Source of the DNA: an uncultured delta proteobacterium
Lineage (GTDB): Bacteria > Desulfobacterota > Syntrophia > Syntrophales > UBA5619
NCBI GenBank assembly: GCA_963817385.1
Contig: CAWFOM010000006.1
Span: 245,242 to 309,241 of the forward strand
Length of the DNA: 64,000 nt
Reading direction: 5' to 3'
The notes beneath the pieces are model-generated. The model ran no database searches. It saw only the letters and a program-made list of their open reading frames with translations, and was not told the DNA's origin. Shown one piece after another: positions 10,678 to 55,469 of the stretch (the stretch's first letter is position 1; every line of letters begins with the position of its first letter). The translations under genes were made by a program, and so were the position numbers.

Positions 10678-13080
10678 CTACTTCTTCTCCTTCTTCTTCA
10701 TTTCAGCGCACAGGCATGCCTCGGGAGCGAACTGCCAGTTAATCCGTCCGACCTCGTCGCCCATGTATATCTGCCGAATCGCAACGCCATGACCGTATAC
10801 GATCTTGCCTTTGTGTGGGCGAATCTTGAACACGCAAGGCAGGCGCCCCATTCGTGGGATTTTGACCTCTTCCAACATGATTCGAGGACGGGCTGGAAGC
10901 GTCAATCGTGCCTTATCGCGCTTCTTGTCTTGGACAAGTTTCCATGGGTTTTCACCCTTGAGGCGTATGAGCAACCCCAACGGCCCTTCCAGTTCCAGCA
11001 CCGCGTCCTCGGGCAGTCTTCGCTCGACCTCAAACGCGAAGAGCCGTGCGCGGTCATCTGCTCCGGCCAGTTTGAAGGAAAAGGAGGGGGTAGCGTCCGG
11101 CGTGTCTGGAAGGTTGTTCACGACGTTGAAGTTGCGCCACGTAACGTTGTTGTGAGCGCGGATCATGTCCTGGAATGAGGCCCAGTCGAGAGGACCCGGA
11201 GTTGGGGGCGCCGGGTCATTGAGGTGCTGCAGCGTAGCGACGAAGCAGTAGTGGGCTATGCCGGGAATCCCTGCTTTGGGCCAAGCCAGTCTGGGGGAAA
11301 CCGTCAGCACGTTGCCGACGGGAACCAGGGGGAGAGTCACGCTGCCGATGAGGTGCCATGTCGAGGGGGTGACCAACGTGGCAACTTCGCTCCAGTAGAC
11401 CGTAGCGGCGACATTGGTAGCCGGCGCGCCTCCCCGATTGCGCACCCTCACGTAAATTGAGTTCTCCTGGCCGGACTCTACCTCGTACCCGAGAGTTTCC
11501 GAGTTTTCCGTTCCGCTTCCCTCACCATAGGTCAGTTGAGGATCGGCTACAGGTGAGGGGCGGACAATGACATCTGGACTGGTGGAAATGGAGCCCATCC
11601 ACGGAACGGCTCCACTGTCTCCAACGGCGTCGCGAAGGTAGATGTCAGGCAGAAGCCCCAGTGTGGGCACGATCGCGGCTAAGTCGGGCATCACGGCAAT
11701 AGCACCCGCGACCCCGGCTCCCTGCGGTGTGCCGGTGGCGGGATTCGAGAGTAACGCCCGCATCTGCCCCGGAGAGAGTTGCGTGCCGGTTGCCGACTGG
11801 TAGTTAGATTGTACCAGCGCCGCTGCACTCACGATAATCGGCGAGGCGCTGCTCGTGCCTTGGAACGTGTCGGTGTACCACCTGTCGGCGTTGCCACCGC
11901 CGTTGTCGAGATCGCCGTAACCGGTGGAGGTGACGTTCTCTCCCCAGGCGAAGCAGTCAATGCGGCTTCCGAAGTTGGAAGCCCACCAACGGTTGTGTGG
12001 TACGGTCGAGACCGAAGCCCCCACCATGATCGCGCCTGAGTCCACGAAGTCGGCCGACGTTCGATTAAGCCGCCGGAGTCCTCCAGGGGTGCTCCAAGCA
12101 TCGAGGTCCGTGTCCCCGTTCCCGCCGGCCTCCACCACGATGATCCCCCGCGCCGTCGCCAGCCGGATGACGTCGAGACGGTCGTCGAGCGTCTCGACGG
12201 GCAGGAATGAGGTCTGCAATTCGATCAAGAGAATCTGGCCGACCGACATGGCTGCCACCGCGGCGACCAGCGCGTCGGTCACGTGCTGTACACCGCCCGC
12301 GTCATAGATCGAACTCATCCGTATGGAGTTAATCGCAGGGGCCGAGCCAACCACCCCTACCGTGTTGTCACTGGCCAAGATCTCGCCTAAGACCGCGGTG
12401 CCGTGATCCTCCCAGCTTGCGTATTGGACACCATGGATGAGTGTCGGCGTCTTGCCGGCGAGGTCCTCGTGGGTCACCCGCCAGCCACCTTCCACATCGA
12501 CGATGCCGATGCCGGCCCCTTCTCCATTCGGCTGCGTCCACATCCAACGCGCGTCGATGCCCACGGGAGCGGCGTCCTGGTAGTCCTGACCAGCATTGTA
12601 CGCGTCATCCCCCGGAGTCACGACGGGTAGCGTGGAGAGCGGCTCCTCCCAGGCCGAGTCGACCTCCGGCAACGACGACAGCATCTCGATCAGCCGGGTG
12701 ATTTCTTCCCGCGGGCGTTCACGTAGGTCGAGGCGCCAGTACTGGGTAAGACTATGCAGCGGTGGATATTTGGTGTGAGCCACCTCGCGCTCCAAATCCA
12801 GGATTTTCTCAGCCGGAACCGAGCGTACCAGCCGGTGGGATTCAGGCGAGCGGGCGTTCTCAAGGACCTGGGACAGGCCCTTCAAGGCATATATCTTCGC
12901 ATGGGCAACGAGCGTATCCGCCACCTTGTCCCGCCCGACAGGACTCGCTTCGGCGGCGAGTCTAATAACCACCATGCCCGAAGGCCGCTCCGCCTTCGCC
13001 GGATCCCCGATCATGGGACGAACCGGCAACCCCCGGACGACTTCCCTTTTTTTCTTTTCGCTTGTTTCATTCTGATTCAT
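10678..13080 (-). CDS. S8 (subtilisin-like) serine peptidase with N-terminal prodomain and C-terminal beta-rich domains
   Basis: Triad IVDVEGG / DHGTAVLG / FQGTSSASP and oxyanion EAGGNG; no obvious signal peptide. Confidence 0.9.
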   Translation of the reverse strand: MNQNETSEKKKREVVRGLPVRPMIGDPAKAERPSGMVVIRLAAEASPVGRDKVADTLVAHAKIYALKGLSQVLENARSPESHRLVRSVPAEKILDLEREVAHTKYPPLHSLTQYWRLDLRERPREEITRLIEMLSSLPEVDSAWEEPLSTLPVVTPGDDAYNAGQDYQDAAPVGIDARWMWTQPNGEGAGIGIVDVEGGWRVTHEDLAGKTPTLIHGVQYASWEDHGTAVLGEILASDNTVGVVGSAPAINSIRMSSIYDAGGVQHVTDALVAAVAAMSVGQILLIELQTSFLPVETLDDRLDVIRLATARGIIVVEAGGNGDTDLDAWSTPGGLRRLNRTSADFVDSGAIMVGASVSTVPHNRWWASNFGSRIDCFAWGENVTSTGYGDLDNGGGNADRWYTDTFQGTSSASPIIVSAAALVQSNYQSATGTQLSPGQMRALLSNPATGTPQGAGVAGAIAVMPDLAAIVPTLGLLPDIYLRDAVGDSGAVPWMGSISTSPDVIVRPSPVADPQLTYGEGSGTENSETLGYEVESGQENSIYVRVRNRGGAPATNVAATVYWSEVATLVTPSTWHLIGSVTLPLVPVGNVLTVSPRLAWPKAGIPGIAHYCFVATLQHLNDPAPPTPGPLDWASFQDMIRAHNNVTWRNFNVVNNLPDTPDATPSFSFKLAGADDRARLFAFEVERRLPEDAVLELEGPLGLLIRLKGENPWKLVQDKKRDKARLTLPARPRIMLEEVKIPRMGRLPCVFKIRPHKGKIVYGHGVAIRQIYMGDEVGRINWQFAPEACLCAEMKKKEKK

Positions 13081-13217
13081 GTTGATCCTCCTTTTTGAAC
13101 AATTGATGGTATGCAGATGATCTCCTCTCTTTTGTCACAAGATTTAGACAGGTTAGCTTTTTCAGTAGGGTTACAAATAACAGCCCCCAAAGAGGTATAA
13201 CAACTCCGTGGAGGCCT

Positions 13218-13250
13218 TCATATTGGCACCTTCCGGTAACTCCTTCTCAC
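13218..13250 (-). promoter_or_regulatory. Putative leader mini-ORF MRRSYRKVPI* with downstream hairpin (copy 2)
   Basis: SD AGGAGGT-CACC-GTG, 10 codons, TGA, then hairpin GGCCTCCA...TGGGGGCT and GTTATTT; lies in the 5' leader of the S8 gene. Confidence 0.6.
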
Positions 13251-13436
13251 GGTGACCTCCTGGAGGTTAGTGTTTTAGGTTTGGGGTTAACGGTGACCGG
13301 GCAAGAAGGAGATTGAGATCTGGCTATCTTGAAAGATGCTCTTAAGGTCAGATGGAGATCAGTTGGAACTCAAACTTGGATTTATTGGGAAATAATGAAC
13401 AAACCTCCAAAAGGACGTCATGTCCTGCTGGAGGCT

Positions 13437-13469
13437 TCATATTGGCACCTTCCGATAATTCCGTTTCAC
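13437..13469 (-). promoter_or_regulatory. Putative leader mini-ORF MKRNYRKVPI* with downstream terminator-like hairpin (copy 1)
   Basis: GGAG-TCCACC-GTG, 10 codons, TGA, then hairpin AAGCCTCCA...TGGAGGTTT and a T-rich tail. Confidence 0.6.
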
Positions 13470-13657
13470 GGTGGACTCCGGGAGGTTAAGGGGAAGGTTG
13501 ATGGGTTTACCGAGATGATAAGAGAAGCTACAATCGAAAAATATTCTTATGCGAATGTAAAGTCAAGAGGAAAATAGCATCAGTTCTCAGACTGCAGCAT
13601 AGTTGCAGCAAAAGAAAAAGGGGCCACAGAATAAGCTCTGTAACCCCTCGTTTTTTC

Positions 13658-13702
13658 TGGAGCCGATGAGCAGGATCGAACTGCTGACCTGCTGATTACG
13701 AA
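13658..13702 (-). repeat. Duplicated 3' 45 bp of tRNA-Thr (att site)
   Basis: Identical to 14758-14802; identity ends within the anticodon loop. Confidence 0.92.
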
Positions 13703-14138
13703 AAAGATATACTCATGTTCTACCCCGCATTACTGCTGTATTTTATTTTTTGACTGTGTCCCAACAGAGTATTTTAAGGTCTTTCCCGTGTCCCAGATTC
13801 ATAAGTCCCGTCCTAATCTATGTTTTGTCCGTTCTCATGATTCTCCTTTAAAAAATTGATCCTCGGGTTTTTTATTTAGTATTTCCTGTAACAAAGCATC
13901 TGATGATTTTTACAGGCATACTTTATTTCAAACGATATTCAATAAGCTCGGGATATTCCGGAGACAATAAAGTAGGTTAATAAGTTGTCTGACTCTCCTT
14001 AACGTATCCCTCAATATATTGAGGTTTCACCAAATATTGAGGCAAACAGATCGTTTCTCACTTCTCTGCTGTTCTGTGCTATTAATCTAATCGCCTGTTA
14101 TTATAGGATGAATCAAAACTTCTGATTTTTTCCAACTA

Positions 14139-14757: not shown

Positions 14758-14833
14758 TGGAGCCGATGAGCAGGATCGAACTGCTGACCTGCTGATTACG
14801 AATCAGCTGCTCTACCGTCTGAGCTACATCGGC
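14758..14833 (-). tRNA. tRNA-Thr (anticodon CGT)
   Basis: 76-nt cloverleaf GCCGATGTAGCTCAG...TTCGTAA...GTTCGATC...ATCGGCTCCA with encoded CCA. Confidence 0.97.
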
Positions 14834-15084: not shown

Positions 15085-17050
15085 ATGTCTCTGAAGGAAA
15101 ATCTCAGATACCGAAGCTGGGTCGAGGTCGATCTCGGCAACTTCGCCGCGAACTGGGCGGAAATGAAGCGGCTGGTCGGTCCCACTGCGCAGATCATGCA
15201 GGTGGTCAAGGCGGACGCCTACGGCCACGGGGCGATTGAGATCTCCAACGTCGCCCTCGTAAACGGCGCCTCCTGCCTCGGCGTGGCGAACGCCGACGAA
15301 GGGGTGCAACTCCGGGTGAGCGGGATCACCGCTCCCGTCATCATCCTCTCCCCTGCCACCGATTCCGAGATCGACCAGATCATCAAATATAACCTGATCC
15401 CCTCGGTATCCGATCTCGGCTTTGCCCGGGAATTTCAGAAGCGGGCCCGCAAGGCCGGCATCCGCACGCCCATCCATGTCGAGGTGGACACGGGGATGGG
15501 CCGGGGCGGCACTACCCGGGAGGAGGCCGTCCCGGTCATCCGGGAGATCGCCGCCTTCCCCAATCTCTGCCATTGAGGGGATCTTCACCCATTTTGCCGA
15601 AAGCGAGATCCTCTCCTACTACAATGACCTGCAGTGGCGCTCCTTCGCGGAGATCCTGGAGAAACTGGCGGCGCACAACATCACGATACCGATCCGCCAC
15701 ATCTCCAACAGCGGCGCCATCCTGAACTACCCGCAGTTTCACCTCGACATGGTGCGGCCGGGGATCATCTCCTACGGGATCTACCCCTCGCCGGAAACCC
15801 GGGCGAAGGCCTCCCTCGCCCCCGTGATGAGCTTCAAGACGCGGGTGGTCCTCGTCAAGGAGTTCCCCGAAGGGTACAGCATCGGCTACGGCCGGACCTT
15901 CATCACCCGGCGGCCCACCCGGATCGCCACCATCCCGGTCGGCTACGGCGACGGCTTCGGCTGGCTCCTCGGGAACCAGGGGGAGGCCCTGATCCGGGGG
16001 AGGCGCGTTCCCATCGCCGGCCGCATCTCGATGGACATGTGCACGCTCGACATCAGCCAGATCCCGGAGTGCCAGGTCGGCGAGGAGGTGGTCCTCATGG
16101 GGGAACAGGGGGGCGAGCGGATCACCGCCGACGAGATCGCCCGGAAGGTGCATACGATCAGCTACGAGATCCTCTGCGCCCTCGGGAAGCGGGCGCCGCG
16201 GGTCTTCCTCCACCAGGGGCGGGCCGACCGGGTGGAACCGAGCCTCCGGCGGATCTTCATCCCCGATGAGGAGAAATCGATCTCCCGGATCGACACGATC
16301 ATCCGCCACTGCTTCCAGACGCGGGCGCGCAACGAGGAGCTCGGCGACGCGATCTACTACGAGATGTTCGAGACCCTCTTCGGCAAGGAGGACCGCCAGC
16401 TCGAACTCAGGGACGATTTCCGCTACGCCATCCACGTGACGGAGTTCACGCCGGAGGAGGAGGTTCCGGAGGAGCTGCGGCGGGATTACTTCAAGGTCAC
16501 GACCCATGTGGAGTACACGAAGGCCATCCGGCACGCCCACTTCGTGATCGGCTGCGCACAGGACAACGAGCAACTGGCGGCGTTCTTCGAAGACAAGCGG
16601 TGCGAATACCGCTGGCTCCTGAACGGCGGGGAAAACCTCACGGCCGAGAGGGATTTCCGGGTGAACGGCGTCCGGATCGATGGCGAGGCGGTGCCGATCA
16701 TCCGGACGGAGAGCACCGCACGGGGCTATGAGGTCTGGTGCGGATCGGACGAGCTCAAAAAGAAGCTCAACCGTCAGGTCCGGGTGGAAATCGAGATCGA
16801 AACCAAAAAACTCAAAGCCAACCGGCTCTTCTCCGCCTACCTGGTCTATCCAACCCGGGGGATGGAGATCTCCTTCAATTACGGAGGGACGAATATCAAA
16901 AACGTCCGGGACGTCGGTTTCTTCGCCGGGAAACACCCCTATCCGGAGGTGACCCGGGAAAAGGGGAAATCGGTCACCCTCCGCCTCGGGAACGATGCAT
17001 GGATCTTCCCCACGAGCGGTGTGACGTTCATTTGGGATCTGGTAGAGTAA
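15085..17050 (+). CDS. alr: Alanine racemase with ~270-aa C-terminal extension, +1 frameshift near 15570
   Basis: VVKADAYGHG PLP-lysine, VDTGMGR, VRPGI, IGYG, PVGYGDG, GRISMD, TISYEILC. Confidence 0.9.
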
Positions 17051-31718: not shown

Positions 31719-32290
31719 TACGGGAAAAGAATGAGAGCACGTAACACATGGCTCCTCTTCCCTCTGCCCCGGATTATCGGGAAGAGGCGGAAAGAGTGTC
31801 TGATCCGCACCGCGGATGAAAGAGTAGGGTATCCTTTTGTTTATGACGTCTCGGTGGTCTCCATGGCTTTGGTGAATGAGGCCGGAGAAATGTATGCCGT
31901 CGCGACCACAGAGAGAATGACGGGCACGAAATAAGGGGGGGCTGGCAATGTCTGCAAAGAAATTCCGGAATTCAAGAAGGAGACTTTCTTGGGTAATCCT
32001 CACTTTAATTCGCCGTCCTCTTGTCGCTAGTCGGTTCTGCAGAACTCCAAGGAAACAATCCCGTAGAAATGATCCTGAAACTGGCAGAAATAGCGATCGA
32101 AAAGAAAAACCTGCCAACAGTGTTTTCTAAACAGGCCGCATAGTTTGTCAAAGAGTTAAATGTTACGGAATCGTAATGTCCAAACTCCCGGAATAGGATT
32201 GGCCTGCCAATAACTGTACAGTTATCTATTGTTGCCAATTACACTCAGGTTACGTAAACTCAGAACGCCATAGCTACAGAAAGTAGTCCG

Positions 32291-32420
32291 AAACTGGCCG
32301 ACGTCACGGGCCGGTCGCTTATAATCCATGCCGGTGGCGATAACTATTCAGACCAGCCAGCCGGCAGCTTTGGATGAAGGAGGTGTCAGAGTGGCCTGTG
32401 GAGTGATAAGTGGCCAATAA
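32291..32420 (+). pseudogene. sodC: Cu/Zn superoxide dismutase C-terminal remnant
   Basis: LADVTGRSLIIHAGGDNYSDQ, a 4-bp CCAG duplication, then PAALDEGGVRVACGVI*; 5' part absent. Confidence 0.8.
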
Positions 32421-32761
32421 AGGCTGCGCGACTCAAATAAACAATACCTTAACAGAGGGAGACTTATGATGTCTTTCATGAAAATTGCGGAATGCCGATG
32501 TCGCATCCTGGGGTTAATGCTGTTAGTTGCTACCCTCACCCTCAGCTTGACCATGTCGTCTGCGTTGGCCGACAGCGACAAGCGTGTGGCGAAAGCGTCA
32601 TGACCCAGAACTGGATGCGGGAACAGACCTGTTGTAGTGACGTGTTCATGTATCATTGCATCGGAGGAAACCTTTTACATTGACTATCCTTGAAATTAAG
32701 AATATTTATAAAGATCCGGCATCCATAAGAGAGTCAAATCGATAAACCTTTTTGGTGAACC

Positions 32762-32794
32762 ATGCAACGGGTAATCCAGAAGGTGCCATCATAA
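32762..32794 (+). promoter_or_regulatory. Putative leader mini-ORF MQRVIQKVPS* with downstream hairpin (copy 3)
   Basis: Aligns without gaps to the copies at 13218 and 13437; hairpin AACGCTCCCCTAG...CTGGGGGGGCGTT at 32793-32830. Confidence 0.55.
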
Positions 32795-32972
32795 CGCTCC
32801 CCTAGGTTTAAAATACTCTGGGGGGGCGTTCAAAACTCATAATACTGTATAGAAGACATCGGGATATATCAAAAATCCTCTTCTTCGGAAAATATTATCA
32901 AGATACAAATACAAGAGAAATCAAACAACAGAAAATGCCTTACACAAATCGATCAGGACAAAGAAGGTGACT

Positions 32973-33728
32973 ATGAAAACGATATTGCGTGTTGTCGTTA
33001 TTTCTTTGTTTTGTTGCATTGCTTATCCGTCTATACTTCTACCTACGGATTTTCTCGATGATGTCCTGAAAAAAGAGTTACCCCAGTTGCCTGGCGCCGT
33101 AGGAGGCCAAGCGGCAGGAAAGGGTCTTGACGATAGTACAATAGTATCCGGCTTGAAGGAGGTCCTTGCCATCGGAACTAAGAACGCTGTAAATCTGGTT
33201 TCAATGGTTAACGGTTACTATGGTAACGACGCCATCAAGATCCTCCTGCCCGATAAGATTCAGAAGGTTGCGGAGCTCGCAGGAAAAATTGGTTACCAGA
33301 AGCAGGTGGACGAATTGATCCAAAGCATGAACCATGCTGCTGAGAAGGCAGCCCCGAAGGCGGCCTCCTCCTTTTCCGATGCGATAAAGGGAATGACCAT
33401 CGACGATGCTCGAAAAATACTGTCGGGCGGTAATACGTCTGCAACCGAGTATTTTAAATCCCATACCTTCTCGAAACTCTACGATGAGTTCAAACCCAGC
33501 ATCTCCGAGAGCATGAACCAAACAGGGGTCGTACGCTCCTATAACGCCATGATGAGCAAGGTACCGGCCATTCCATTCGCAAAACCTGAGTCGGTGGATC
33601 TCGATCATTACATCACCACAAAGGCACTGGATGGTCTGTATCACATGGTAGGTCAGGAGGAACAGGAGATCAGGACAAATCCTGTTGCGCGGACGACGGA
33701 TCTTTTAACTAGGGTTTTTGGCAAATAA
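32973..33728 (+). CDS. DUF4197 domain secreted protein
   Basis: GLKEVL-IG, IKILLP, SMNHAAEKAAP, ALDGLY, EEQEIRTNPVARTTDLL. Confidence 0.88.
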   Translation: MKTILRVVVISLFCCIAYPSILLPTDFLDDVLKKELPQLPGAVGGQAAGKGLDDSTIVSGLKEVLAIGTKNAVNLVSMVNGYYGNDAIKILLPDKIQKVAELAGKIGYQKQVDELIQSMNHAAEKAAPKAASSFSDAIKGMTIDDARKILSGGNTSATEYFKSHTFSKLYDEFKPSISESMNQTGVVRSYNAMMSKVPAIPFAKPESVDLDHYITTKALDGLYHMVGQEEQEIRTNPVARTTDLLTRVFGK

Positions 33729-33746: not shown

Positions 33747-34184
33747 ATGATTAAAGAATTCAAGGAATTCGTTATGAAGGGGAATGTGCTTGACATGGCA
33801 GTGGGCATCATCATTGGTGCGGCTTTTGGTTCAGTGGTAACGTCCTTTGTGAACGATGTGCTGATGCCTCCCATTGGTCTTCTGCTCGGCAAGGTGGATT
33901 TCAGCAACCTGTTCATCAACCTTTCGGGTAAGACCTTTGAAACATTGGCTGAAGCGAAGAAGGCTGGTGCTGCGACCCTCAACTACGGTCTTTTCCTCAA
34001 CACGGCGATCAACTTTTTGATTGTGGGCTTTGCCGTGTTTTTTCTGGTTAAACAGGTCAATCGTTTGAAACGGAATGAGCCGGCCCCCGCACCTACAACC
34101 CGCGAGTGTCGCTTTTGCTATACTGCGATCCCAATTAAAGCCACCCGCTGCCCCCATTGTACCTCAGAACTTACCAAGACTTAA
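33747..34184 (+). CDS. mscL: Large-conductance mechanosensitive channel with C-terminal Cys motif
   Basis: [34 protein letters not shown]-terminal CRFC...CPHC. Confidence 0.95.
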
Positions 34185-34395: not shown

Positions 34396-37300
34396 ATGTG
34401 GGGACGTGCAACCAGGATTGTGTTGAGCCTGCCGTTTATTATTGTGGCGGGGTTGTTCGGTCTCTACCTGGTGTTCGGCTTTTTTCTGGTCAACCCGCTG
34501 GCCCAAAAACTGCTGCCCTGGGTGGGCGAAACCAAACTTGCCAGCCGACTCAGCGTGCAGCAGGTCAAGTTCAATCCTCTCACCCTCGAAGTGACCGTGG
34601 ACGGGTTGAAACTGGCCGATCGAAACGGTCAGCCCCTCGCCGGCTTCGACCGGCTCTACCTCAACATCGATACCACGGGGCTCTTCCGCTGGGCTTGGCG
34701 CATTCAGGATATCCAGCTCAAGCGCCCGCGTGCGACGCTGTGCGGTGCAACCCGGCGGCACAGCTCAACTGGGCGGCGCTCATGGCCAAACTCAACGAGG
34801 ACAAAAAGCCGTCGTCCGGCACCATGGCGCGTGTGCTGATCGATCACATCAAGATCGACGACGGCGATATCGAATACACCGACGCCAACCGCGCGGGCCG
34901 CTCCGTTCAAAGCCGTGCTGCAGCCGCTCGGGATCGAGCTCGACGGCTTGTCCACGCTGCCCGGTGAGCATGGCAGCTACCGGATTGCCGCCAAATTGCC
35001 GGAGCAGGGCGGGACGTTCACCTTGAAGGGTGACATCGGGCTGAACCCGCTATCGTCCAAAGGCACACTCGTCCTGGAAGGCCTGCAGCTGGCCGATCTG
35101 CAGCGCGCAATCAAGACCCCGCCCAATTTCGAACTTTCGTCCGGCACGGCGGCCGCGGACCTGCGTTACCGCTTCGCCATGGTGCGCGACAAGGCGGGCG
35201 CGGAGACGCCCTCGGTGCAGGTCAACGATGCCAACCTCAGCATACGGAATTTCACACTGGCTCCGCGCGGCGGCGGCGCGCCCGTACTGGAGCTTACCGA
35301 GGCGCGGATCGACAATGCGAACCTGGATCTGGCCGAGCGCCGCCTCGAGGTGGCGAGCGTGAGCCTGACCGGCGGCAAACTGGCGGCGACCCGCAACGTC
35401 AAGGGCACTCTGGATTGGCAGACGCTCTTTGCCGCGGACGAGGAGAAATCAGCACCGGCGACCACTCCCTCTGTGCCATCGGCGGCTGAAACAGGCGCAC
35501 CGGCGCAGCCGGCGCGTGCCGTGGAAAATTGCCGTGCGGGAAATCAGGCTGGCCGACTGGGCGGCGCGTTTCACCGACCAGGGCTTTGCCCGGCCGCTCG
35601 TCGTGAGTGCCGGCGGCTTCGGGATGACCACGGCGCTGACCGGTGAAGTAGGCGCCAAGCCGGCAATCGAAGTCGGCCCGCTGAATGCCGCCCTGGGGCC
35701 GGTGCGGGTGCTGTCGGGTGAGCAGGAAGCGGCTGTGCTGCAGCGCGCCGCACTCCTCAACGCGAAACTGAACCTGGCGGAAAACCGGCTCGTGATCGAC
35801 GCCGTGGAATTGAACGGCATGCGCACCTCGGCGGTGTTGGACAAGAACAAAACCCTCAATTGGGACGAGATACTGAAAGCCGCCCCGGGCGCACCGGCAC
35901 CTGCGCCGGCCAAGCCCACTGCGGTCAAGTCGGCCGCCGCGGATAAACCCGGCATGGATCTGCAGCTTGCGCGCTTCAGCCTGGATGGCCTCGAAGTGGG
36001 CATCGCCGATCAGTCCACCGGGGAACCGGTCAAACTCGATCTGGCCAAGGGTTTTGTGACGACTGAAAAACCTGAGCCTCGATATGAACAAAGCCGTGCC
36101 GGTGGAGGCCGGCTTCGGCCTCAAGCAGGGCGGGACATTCAACGCCGGCGGCACCATCACCCCGGGCAAAGCGTCGGGCAAACTCGATCTCAAACTCGCC
36201 GGCTTGTCGTTGAAACCCTTTACGCCTTACGTCAACCGGTTCGCCAAGCTCAACCTGCATTCGGGCGCGGCGTCCACCCGCGGCAGGCTCCTGTTTGCGC
36301 GGGCCGAAGCGGGGATGAAGGTGGATTTCAACGGTGGCTTTGCGGTGGATGCCCTCGCGATCACCGAAGAGGAAACCGGGGATCCTTTTTTCGGCTGGGA
36401 AAGGCTCTCCTCCGACAGCCTGGAGCTCAAACTGAATCCCAATCGCCTGCACATGAACGAGCTGGTGGCGGTGAATCTGTTCGGCAAGGTCATCATCTTT
36501 GAAGACAAGTCGATCAACCTGAAGCGCATCCTGCGCTCTCCGGAGCCGGAGGGCGCCGTGACAGCGAAGGCGGGCGAGCCTGCGGCGCCAGACCGTGAGG
36601 AAAAGGCCGCCGCGCCTGCGCCGGCCAAGACCGAGACGCGCGACGAAGCCGCCCCGTTCCCGCTGGCCATAGAACGTCTGCGCATCAACCAGCGCCGACG
36701 TGGAGTTTGCCGACCTCTCCCTGTCGCCGCAGTTCGGCACACGGATGCATGACCTCTCCGGCGTGGTCACGGGGCTTTCCAATGACCCGGCGACGACGGC
36801 GCTGGTGGAACTCGACGGCAAGGTGGACGAATACGGCTCGGCCCGTGTCCGCGGCTCGATCCAGCCCTTCAGGGCGACCGAGTTTCACCGACTTGACGCT
36901 CACCTTCCGCAATCTTGAAATGACCAATCTGACGCCCTATTCGGGCAGATTCGCCGGGCGGAAAGTCGATTCCGGCAAGCTCTCGGTCGATCTCGAATAC
37001 AAGATCAAGCAGCGCCAACTGGCGGGCGACAACAAGGTCGTGATCAACAAGCTCAAGCTCGGCGAGCGTGTCGAGAGTCCCGAGGCGGTGAACCTGCCGC
37101 TTGACCTGGCGATTGCGATTCTGGAGGACAGCGACGGCGTCATCGACCTGGACTTGCCGGTTACGGGAAACCTCGACGACCCCGAGTTCAGCTACGGCAG
37201 GATCATCTGGAAGGCCATCGTCAACGTGCTGACCAAGGTGGTGACCGCGCCCTTCCGGGCGCTCGGCAATCTGTTGGGAATCAGTTCCGACAAGCTCGAA

Positions 37301-37943
37301 GCGGTGGAATTCGATTTCGGAGCGGCAACCCTGCTGCCGCCGGAACAGGAGAAACTCAAGGAAATCGGCCAGGCGCTCGCCAAACGGCCTGCGCTCACGC
37401 TGTCCGTTGCCCCCGCCTATGACCTCCGGAAGGATACCCGCGCGCTCCAGGAATTGAGGATCCGGCGGGATGTCGCCCGGCAGATGGGGTTGACCGTCGA
37501 GGCCGATCAGGAACCGGGTCCGGTCGACATCGCCAACCCGCGCGCCCAGGATGCCCTGGAGTCTTTATACGGCGATCGTTTCGACAAGCAGGGCGGGGTG
37601 AAGGCCATCAAGGCCGAATACGAGAAACCCAAGGAGGGTGCCAAGCCGATTCATGCCGATATGCTGGAACGCCTGACCCTGCAGATTCCCGTGACAGATG
37701 CCGAATTGAAGCAACTGGCGCAGGCGCGCGGCGAGGCGGTGAAGCAGACGCTGATTGACGCTGGGTAAGGTGGATCCGGCCAAGATCAGCGTGGGCGAGC
37801 CGGTGAAAAATGACGATGACGGCAAGGTCGTCGTATGCAAGGTGACTCTGGGTACAGGCGGCAAGCCGGCGTCCGGACCTGCTCCGCTGCCGCCATGCCG
37901 TGATACTCGTGCAAAGCGGAGAGCAAAGCCTGCACGCGCGTGA
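34396..37943 (+). CDS. DUF748 (AsmA-like) large envelope protein with eight +1 frameshifts
   Basis: N-terminal TM, FNPLTL, PYSGRFAG, LPLDLAIAILEDSDGVIDLDLPVTGNLDDPEF; consecutive ORF pieces join by single-base insertions. Confidence 0.82.
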
Positions 37944-55251: not shown

Positions 55252-55469
55252 AGAGTTAAGAGATGATGCTTGAGCAGGAGGGTGCTGGAAGTGTGAACTC
55301 CTTCCTTGTAAGTGAGCGTCAGGTAATTTTGAAAAGAGTGCACCCTTTCGAAGGGTATTCATTATCCGTTATTGACTGAAAGTTTTAGGTTGAATAATTT
55401 CGTTGTCATAGTAGATTTCGAATGCAAATAATGATAATCATAAAGCGATAAAAAACGTTTGAATCAGTT

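Follow-up and report, generated by a model that had tools for sequence, protein, structure and literature searches.

A repeated leader with a short uORF and a terminator-type hairpin in Syntrophales: a candidate ribosome-gated attenuator

In the leader-peptide attenuators of amino-acid operons (trp, his, ilvB uORF) a short upstream open reading frame (uORF) is combined with an intrinsic terminator; the leader family described here likewise has a uORF, a terminator-type hairpin and possibly a pause helix. The multi-copy second-messenger riboswitches of Geobacter resemble the family in other respects, as they are present in many copies per genome, are used in tandem and have genes for exported proteins 3' of them. 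For the pyrBI operon of E. coli, with pyrL as leader ORF, the available text of two reports describes a translating ribosome which physically blocks the intrinsic terminator hairpin, an antiterminator helix not being needed (PMC5021804, PMC4824070). Mobile attenuators and putative mobile promoters are homologous 5' terminators or promoters found before unrelated genes, and according to the available text of the reports describing them these are mostly recent, high-identity ends of insertion sequences (PMC2965389, PMC3575422).

The present family differs from each of these. Compared with pyrBI, its uORF has only 10-11 codons, no nucleotide-synthesis gene lies 3' of it, and one family of sequences serves hundreds of unrelated genes, in tandem as well as within gene runs. 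Unlike the mobile attenuators, the family has only 53% column identity and is old, extends over several families of the phylum and carries a selected Shine-Dalgarno (SD)-start-uORF arrangement; no link to a transposase was found. An amino-acid attenuator was rejected, as the codon table shows no stretch of repeated codons for a single amino acid, no antiterminator is supported and no biosynthetic genes lie 3'; moreover, the predicted logic would be reversed, with translation opening the leader. In contrast to the Geobacter riboswitches there is no covarying aptamer, conservation is centred on the translation start, and Rfam gave no match on the element (the window searched at the gathering score; six loci at E<=5, with nothing relevant). 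A description of the motif was not found in the literature covered; the lists of motifs from Geobacter and from a Desulfobacteraceae genome that supplement PMC11109978 might hold it.

Three copies in the window

The window, i.e. the whole stretch of DNA analysed, is 64,000 nucleotides long and comes from an uncultured member of the Syntrophales. The original prediction had described two neighbouring copies of a mini-ORF on the reverse strand and a third, diverged copy on the forward strand, and had given a sequence pattern common to the three. This pattern has exactly three matches in the window (13218-13253 and 13437-13472 on the reverse strand, 32759-32794 on the forward strand) and none in 100 shuffles. 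The genome-wide search proposed together with the pattern returned the same three matches only.

Copies 1 and 2 form a tandem pair, 19 kb from copy 3, with a promoter-like site (TTGACT, 17 nt, TATTTT) at 13538..13566 on the reverse strand. Copy 1 consists of the arm, the SD (GGAG) and the uORF with a GTG start, KRNYRKVPI* (13437..13487, -), followed by a hairpin with a U-rich tail (13391..13436, -). Copy 2, the second tandem unit without a -35 box of its own, has the same parts: arm, SD (GGAGG) and uORF with a GTG start, RRSYRKVPI* (13218..13268, -), then a hairpin with a U-rich tail (13173..13217, -). The gene 3' of the pair codes for a subtilase (S8) and is located at 10678..13080 (-; PF00082, E=1.1e-16).

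The first gene 3' of copy 3 is a DUF4197 gene (32973..33728, +; PF13852, E=1.4e-74), followed by mscL (33747..34184, +; PF01741, E=2.1e-43), so both genes had been named correctly. The mini-ORF itself is real and is found at 32762..32794 (+), where it reads ATG CAA CGG GTA ATC CAG AAG GTG CCA TCA TAA (MQRVIQKVPS*). A sigma70-type promoter-like site (TTGACT, 17 nt, TATTTA; 32680..32708, +), identified from the sequence directly and from the family alignment, had been overlooked and is also absent from the output of a simple promoter scan. Between this site and the uORF lies a pyrimidine arm with a weak SD (AACCTTTTTGGTG, the family consensus being AACCTTYTGGAG) at 32745..32757 (+). The pairing proposed for the arm, AACCT with GAAGGT, is present in the predicted fold, where the AACCUUUUUGG arm of copy 3 is paired with CCAGAAGGU, but its covariation in the family is borderline (25/500 shuffles). 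The terminator-type hairpin at 32793..32830 (+) begins within the stop codon and has a z of -3.5, reached by none of 200 shuffles; it lacks a U-tract, as had been noticed before, with 2 T in the next 8 positions. A sigma54 site on the opposite strand was considered and rejected by eye, the spacing being wrong.

Copy 3 was scored with a DNA profile trained on 81 elements, all of them from other genomes (leave-out model). The score was 24.3 bits (E=5.2e-5), whereas two shuffled genomes gave no more than 10.6 bits. Among the 11 copies in the genome copy 3 scores lowest, which makes it the most diverged of them. Its nearest relatives have 36 of 60 bases in common with it. Judged by these sequence comparisons, copy 3 is a genuine but diverged member of the family. 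Used alone as a DNA query it had no match in 40 relatives, and four DNA runs against its locus gave short near-identical pieces only, one spanning 32775-32926.

Copy 3 has retained the promoter, the reading frame with its stop and a hairpin that is fully paired. The SD is shifted and weak, the U-tract is missing and the pause consensus discussed below has no match. The view that the element is under selection stands for the family, by its start, SD spacing and hairpin covariation, but is weakened for copy 3 by the degraded SD and U-tract. What speaks for selection on this copy is the retained layout together with one compensated pair at the base of the hairpin (A-U in the consensus, C-G in copy 3). 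Copy 3 probably leaks or is permanently open, and its regulatory effect on DUF4197-mscL may therefore be small.

Some other features of the window were recorded. A frameshifted fragment at ~32037-32420 (+), just 5' of copy 3, resembles a Cu/Zn superoxide dismutase by a putative motif. A DUF748 gene at 34396-37768 (+) is in five pieces, and an alanine racemase at 15085-17050 (+) is split by a frameshift and has an unexplained C-terminal extension of ~280 residues; an assembly error is possible in both cases. Directly 5' of the tandem leaders lies a small integrated islet, with a tRNA-Thr gene and, 1.1 kb off, a second copy of the 3' portion of that gene (13655-13700 and 14761-14833, -). A second intergenic motif (CTTCCTG(T/A)A, ~38 nt, TTTCRAANGGTAATC) is present at 13883-13966 (+) and ~55298-55363 (+) in the window and at ~20 places in the genome. 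It lies 86-108 nt 5' of the -35 box in 36 of 87 family members, is also found without the uORF leader, and is possibly a regulator site or a separate element.

Extent and conservation of the family

That the element is not just a local duplication was borne out: profile and covariance model find 11 copies in the genome, eight more than had been seen originally, and the genes next to them are co-directional and unrelated. For the order (Syntrophales), 34 of 151 genomes, this genome counted, have matches to the covariance model; in a phylum sample 13 of 151 genomes have them (17 of 151 with a broader model, this genome counted). Carrier genomes contain 1-26 copies, with 26 matches in one genome, and a total of 247 unique elements was collected. 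Pattern matches come from Syntrophales and related Deltaproteobacteria; the pattern scans yielded 15 stretches from genomes and 81 from metagenomes, a set with a bias due to the pattern, which was kept separate where relevant. The carriers are anaerobic sediment bacteria, and the family is spread over several families of the phylum. A Hydrogenedentes bin and an archaeal bin have one copy each, near contig ends, which we discounted as a sign of a wider range.

The common layout is a TTGAC -35 box, an SD 6 nt before the start codon, a uORF of 10-11 codons and a covarying terminator-type hairpin, in all ~200 nt including the promoter. TTGAC[TA] is found at -125..-55 from the start in 102 of 141 elements, compared with 4-10 of 130-144 in four control windows. 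A weak YATTNN box is located 17 nt 3' of it, and TTGAC is scarce between the hairpin and the next gene. The leader is C-rich with AACCTTYTGGAG at its end, and a start codon (ATG 125, GTG 52, CTG/TTG/ATT 7) is found exactly 6 nt later in 184 of 208 elements, a count that is partly circular since the search profile contains ATG. On a tree of 142 elements the T of the start triplet changed 0 times and the G 2 times.

There are two types of uORF. Type A has the form M-K/R-R-x-F/Y/C-R/Q-K-V-P-I, and type B, which is one codon longer, is MRRWGYQKMIM; the N-terminus may resemble that of ribosomal protein L34. Twelve frameshifted or mis-anchored rows were removed before the codon table was made, and 7 further rows before the omega analysis; a frameshifted appearance was seen in about seven copies. 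Omega is 0.60 for the uORF, 0.75-1.43 for the five other frames and 0.75-1.05 upstream, and coding in other frames or on the reverse strand was rejected on this comparison. The uORF has more synonymous changes than expected (130 against 96), and the excess is confined to codons 5, 7 and 9. Nonsense changes are fewer than expected (6 against 14.9), but the +2 frame has an equal shortage of them (7 against 13.8).

Conservation of the individual positions is less extensive than the three window copies had suggested. Of the residues put forward as kept, R3 and K7-V8-P9, constraint was found for K7 and P9, together with F/Y5, but for these only, and it is weak (omega 0.60). The stop is not conserved, as 25 branches have lost the codon-11 stop and 6 have gained it. 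The codons AGA, AGG and ATA are rare in the genome, and rare-codon sensing by the uORF was considered. Type I toxins are hydrophobic peptides of at least about 20 residues, and a type I toxin-antitoxin system was rejected since the uORF peptide has 10-11 residues, is basic and has often lost its stop. At two loci (L155, L168) the uORF itself is locally duplicated, in one case with an in-frame fusion giving a 23-codon ORF.

Genes following the leader

Pfam matches were obtained for 55 of 100 forward ORFs 3' of the element (hand-picked from 162 elements, with duplicates, short flanks and implausible ORFs excluded) against 3 of 114 reverse ORFs (chosen by a script), a comparison in which hand-picking favours the forward set, though too little to explain the gap. 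The forward matches belong to ~45 unrelated families, and the families downstream include subtilases, alpha/beta hydrolases, 5'-nucleotidases, Usp, CsbD, OsmC, GYD, DUF3303, ABM, OmpA and DUF4197. From the uORF start to the start of the next gene the median distance is 173 nt. A signal- or membrane-like N-terminus, called by a crude heuristic, is present in 76 of 160 next genes and in 331 of 1907 ORFs of the genome. The genes following the leader are thus co-directional, unrelated and enriched for exported proteins; as they have no common pathway, no signal can be read from them. Proteins of ~100 residues resembling GYD/DUF3303, many without a Pfam match, were found repeatedly after the leader (L005, L006, L022, L074, L109, L139, L293 and others).

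The module is mobile. It is present at 2 of 30 DUF4197 loci, the second being a different subtype without hairpin, and a stable link between leader and DUF4197 was rejected on this basis. The three closest orthologues (70-72%) are without the leader, and the regulon-like reuse suggested in the original prediction is therefore not demonstrated. Comparison of the loci indicates that the leader is gained and lost quickly and is not tied to particular genes.

Tandem copies are often of type B followed by type A, with a conserved spacer of ~170 nt that may be structured. Promoterless copies occur 40-100 nt after the preceding gene, and runs are formed such as promoter-B-A-gene-B-A-gene-A-gene. Element-gene-element-gene runs with unrelated small exported proteins were seen at L288 (4002-7116), L289 and L291-L293. 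Group II intron fragments lie directly 5' of the C1 copy at L008 (1757-2172, -).

Proposed ribosome gating and alternative readings

The family hairpin has the base GCCTCC/GGAGGC, starts at the uORF stop and is the only structure obtained from consensus folding. Its covariation is reached in none of 500 shuffles and comprises 73 double changes (71 sequences). A U-tract (at least 5 T in 8) is present in 76 of 139 elements, and the hairpin is found without it in 63 of 139. Among 156 scorable elements (30 further ones had no scorable stem and were left out) 84 have their first in-frame stop at -1..+2 relative to the base of the hairpin, 70 have a frame that runs into or through the hairpin and 2 have a premature stop. 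The uORF thus reaches the hairpin in 154 of 156; stop loss is tolerated and early stops are not. For comparison, ordinary gene-end terminators of the genome were collected with our own crude gene and terminator finder. They lie within 12 nt of the stop, reportedly a stop-to-stem threshold, in 14 of 87 strict calls and in 47 of 153 and 72 of 268 laxer calls, and the mode of the stop distance is 24-29 nt.

Our main reading, to which we assign a probability of roughly one half, is that the repeated leader works as a ribosome-gated attenuator of pyrBI geometry. When no ribosome is present, transcription is predicted to stop at the hairpin after ~140 nt. If a ribosome loaded in time and translated as far as the last uORF codons, it would sit on the 5' arm of the hairpin and RNA polymerase would read through. 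K7 and P9 may hold the ribosome back while it is on the hairpin arm, a C-terminal proline being known for its effect on the ribosome, and a polymerase pause near codon 10-11 would give the ribosome time. The simplest guess for the signal would be translation-initiation capacity relative to polymerase speed. We count in favour of gating the constant spacing of SD and start, the hairpin covariation, the orientation bias of the next genes, the scarcity of TTGAC 3' of the hairpin and the persistence of tandem and promoterless copies within gene runs.

This reading draws on the uORF-hairpin geometry, on the pyrBI precedent, on plausible coupling and on a stop effect described for E. coli, where according to the available text a stop 5 bp before the terminator lowers its efficiency from ~90% to <10% in a translation-dependent manner (PMC4824070). 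Coupling is plausible since the ordinary terminators are mostly far from stops and since the phylum is absent from those listed as runaway in the available text of PMC13323073. The main objection, which comes from PMC4824070 as well, is that in the first 100 nt the ribosome would normally be too late without a polymerase pause. For a terminator located 30 bp 3' of the AUG in E. coli the loss of efficiency is only ~10%, since the ribosome has not caught up within 100 nt unless the polymerase pauses (PMC4824070).

A match to the pause consensus G-G-N8-Y-G has its peak at +30, in 49-54 of 142 copies (about a third) and not in copy 3. The peak lies 11 nt beyond the stretch of the SD-ORF helix that pairs best, and such a spacing fits hairpin-stabilised pauses as far as the available text of PMC12288461 describes them. 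The match is weak because a conserved motif easily gives it. The SD-ORF helix is 81% paired, but its covariation is borderline (25/500 shuffles) and most single changes break it; the SD pairs with its own ORF no more strongly than with a shuffled ORF (78/142). Further points against gating are the U-tract being present in only 76 of 139 elements, the equal nonsense depletion in the +2 frame, the copies with a frameshifted appearance and the lack of a common pathway among the next genes.

Retention of the hairpin in the 63 of 139 elements that have lost the U-tract is also compatible with a constitutive module, where a good promoter and a ribosome-loaded uORF plus hairpin would fix the level or stabilise the mRNA, nothing would be sensed and the U-tract would tune the output. 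Promoterless copies 40-100 nt after the preceding gene, unrelated next genes and rapid gain and loss would suit such a module as well. We consider it unlikely, however, since the tandem doubling with a conserved spacer, the constant distance from start to hairpin and the constraint on K7 and P9 exceed what a fixed dampener needs.

A stand-alone micro-gene, whose ~140-nt terminated RNA or basic 10-residue peptide would act in trans with the next genes transcribed through leak, is quite improbable. It would account for the full promoter-SD-ORF-terminator layout and for the synonymous excess at codons 5, 7 and 9 (130 against 96), but not for a stop lost on 25 branches, an omega of 0.60, the strong orientation bias of the next genes or the promoterless copies.

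It is very improbable that the regulatory look is incidental and the element a repeat, selfish or neutral, that resembles a MITE or REP or acts as a recombination site for the joining of gene cassettes. SD, start, spacing and hairpin pairing are retained at a mean column identity of 53%, and the family had no match in viral contigs or plasmids. In the genome itself, which is 82% complete, no REP (Y1) transposase (PF01797) was found, and the best match for an integron integrase (TIGR02249) has 100.9 bits, the cut-off being 265. These results stand against a patchy distribution with 1-26 copies per genome, element-gene-element-gene arrays, homology extending ~200 nt 5' of the start and neighbours including tRNA islets, toxin-antitoxin pairs and intron remnants, all of which would agree with a repeat. 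Inspection of the element boundaries by eye gave no obvious terminal inverted repeats or target duplication. An integron attC site has the consensus RYYYAAC ... GTTRRRY with both ends paired in one hairpin; attC was rejected, as the element resembles it at the 5' end (CYYTAAC) but has GGAGGCTT at the 3' end and folds into a local hairpin.

Most improbable of all is a riboswitch-like or protein-bound switch with a binder at the conserved GAAGGTGCC freeing the SD arm to pair with the hairpin 5' arm as antiterminator, which we disfavour because, although the two arms are complementary (78% of cells paired) and their predicted pairing in nascent RNA rises from 0.11 to 0.43 with the ORF region blocked, the covariation is no better than in shuffles (110/500), Rfam gave no match, the terminator is still predicted to win in the full RNA and it is the sole consensus fold.

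The ribosome-gated attenuator can be extended to a portable, phylum-wide gate for translation capacity, an extension we regard as doubtful and offer tentatively. Copies of the module, standing alone, in tandem or between the genes of growing cassette runs, would then make the expression of dozens of proteins, exported and accessory ones, depend directly on ribosome availability in energy-starved syntrophs, and the K-V-P-I tail would park the ribosome on the arm of the hairpin.

Attenuation by ribosomes is known from devices specific to a gene; if the reading is true, the present family would be a global and portable form of this control. One uORF-terminator family would then have up to 26 uses per genome and would move between genes faster than the genes diverge. 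Gene regulation in this phylum has hardly been studied, and the leader would offer a way to study how a genome takes control of newly acquired genes.
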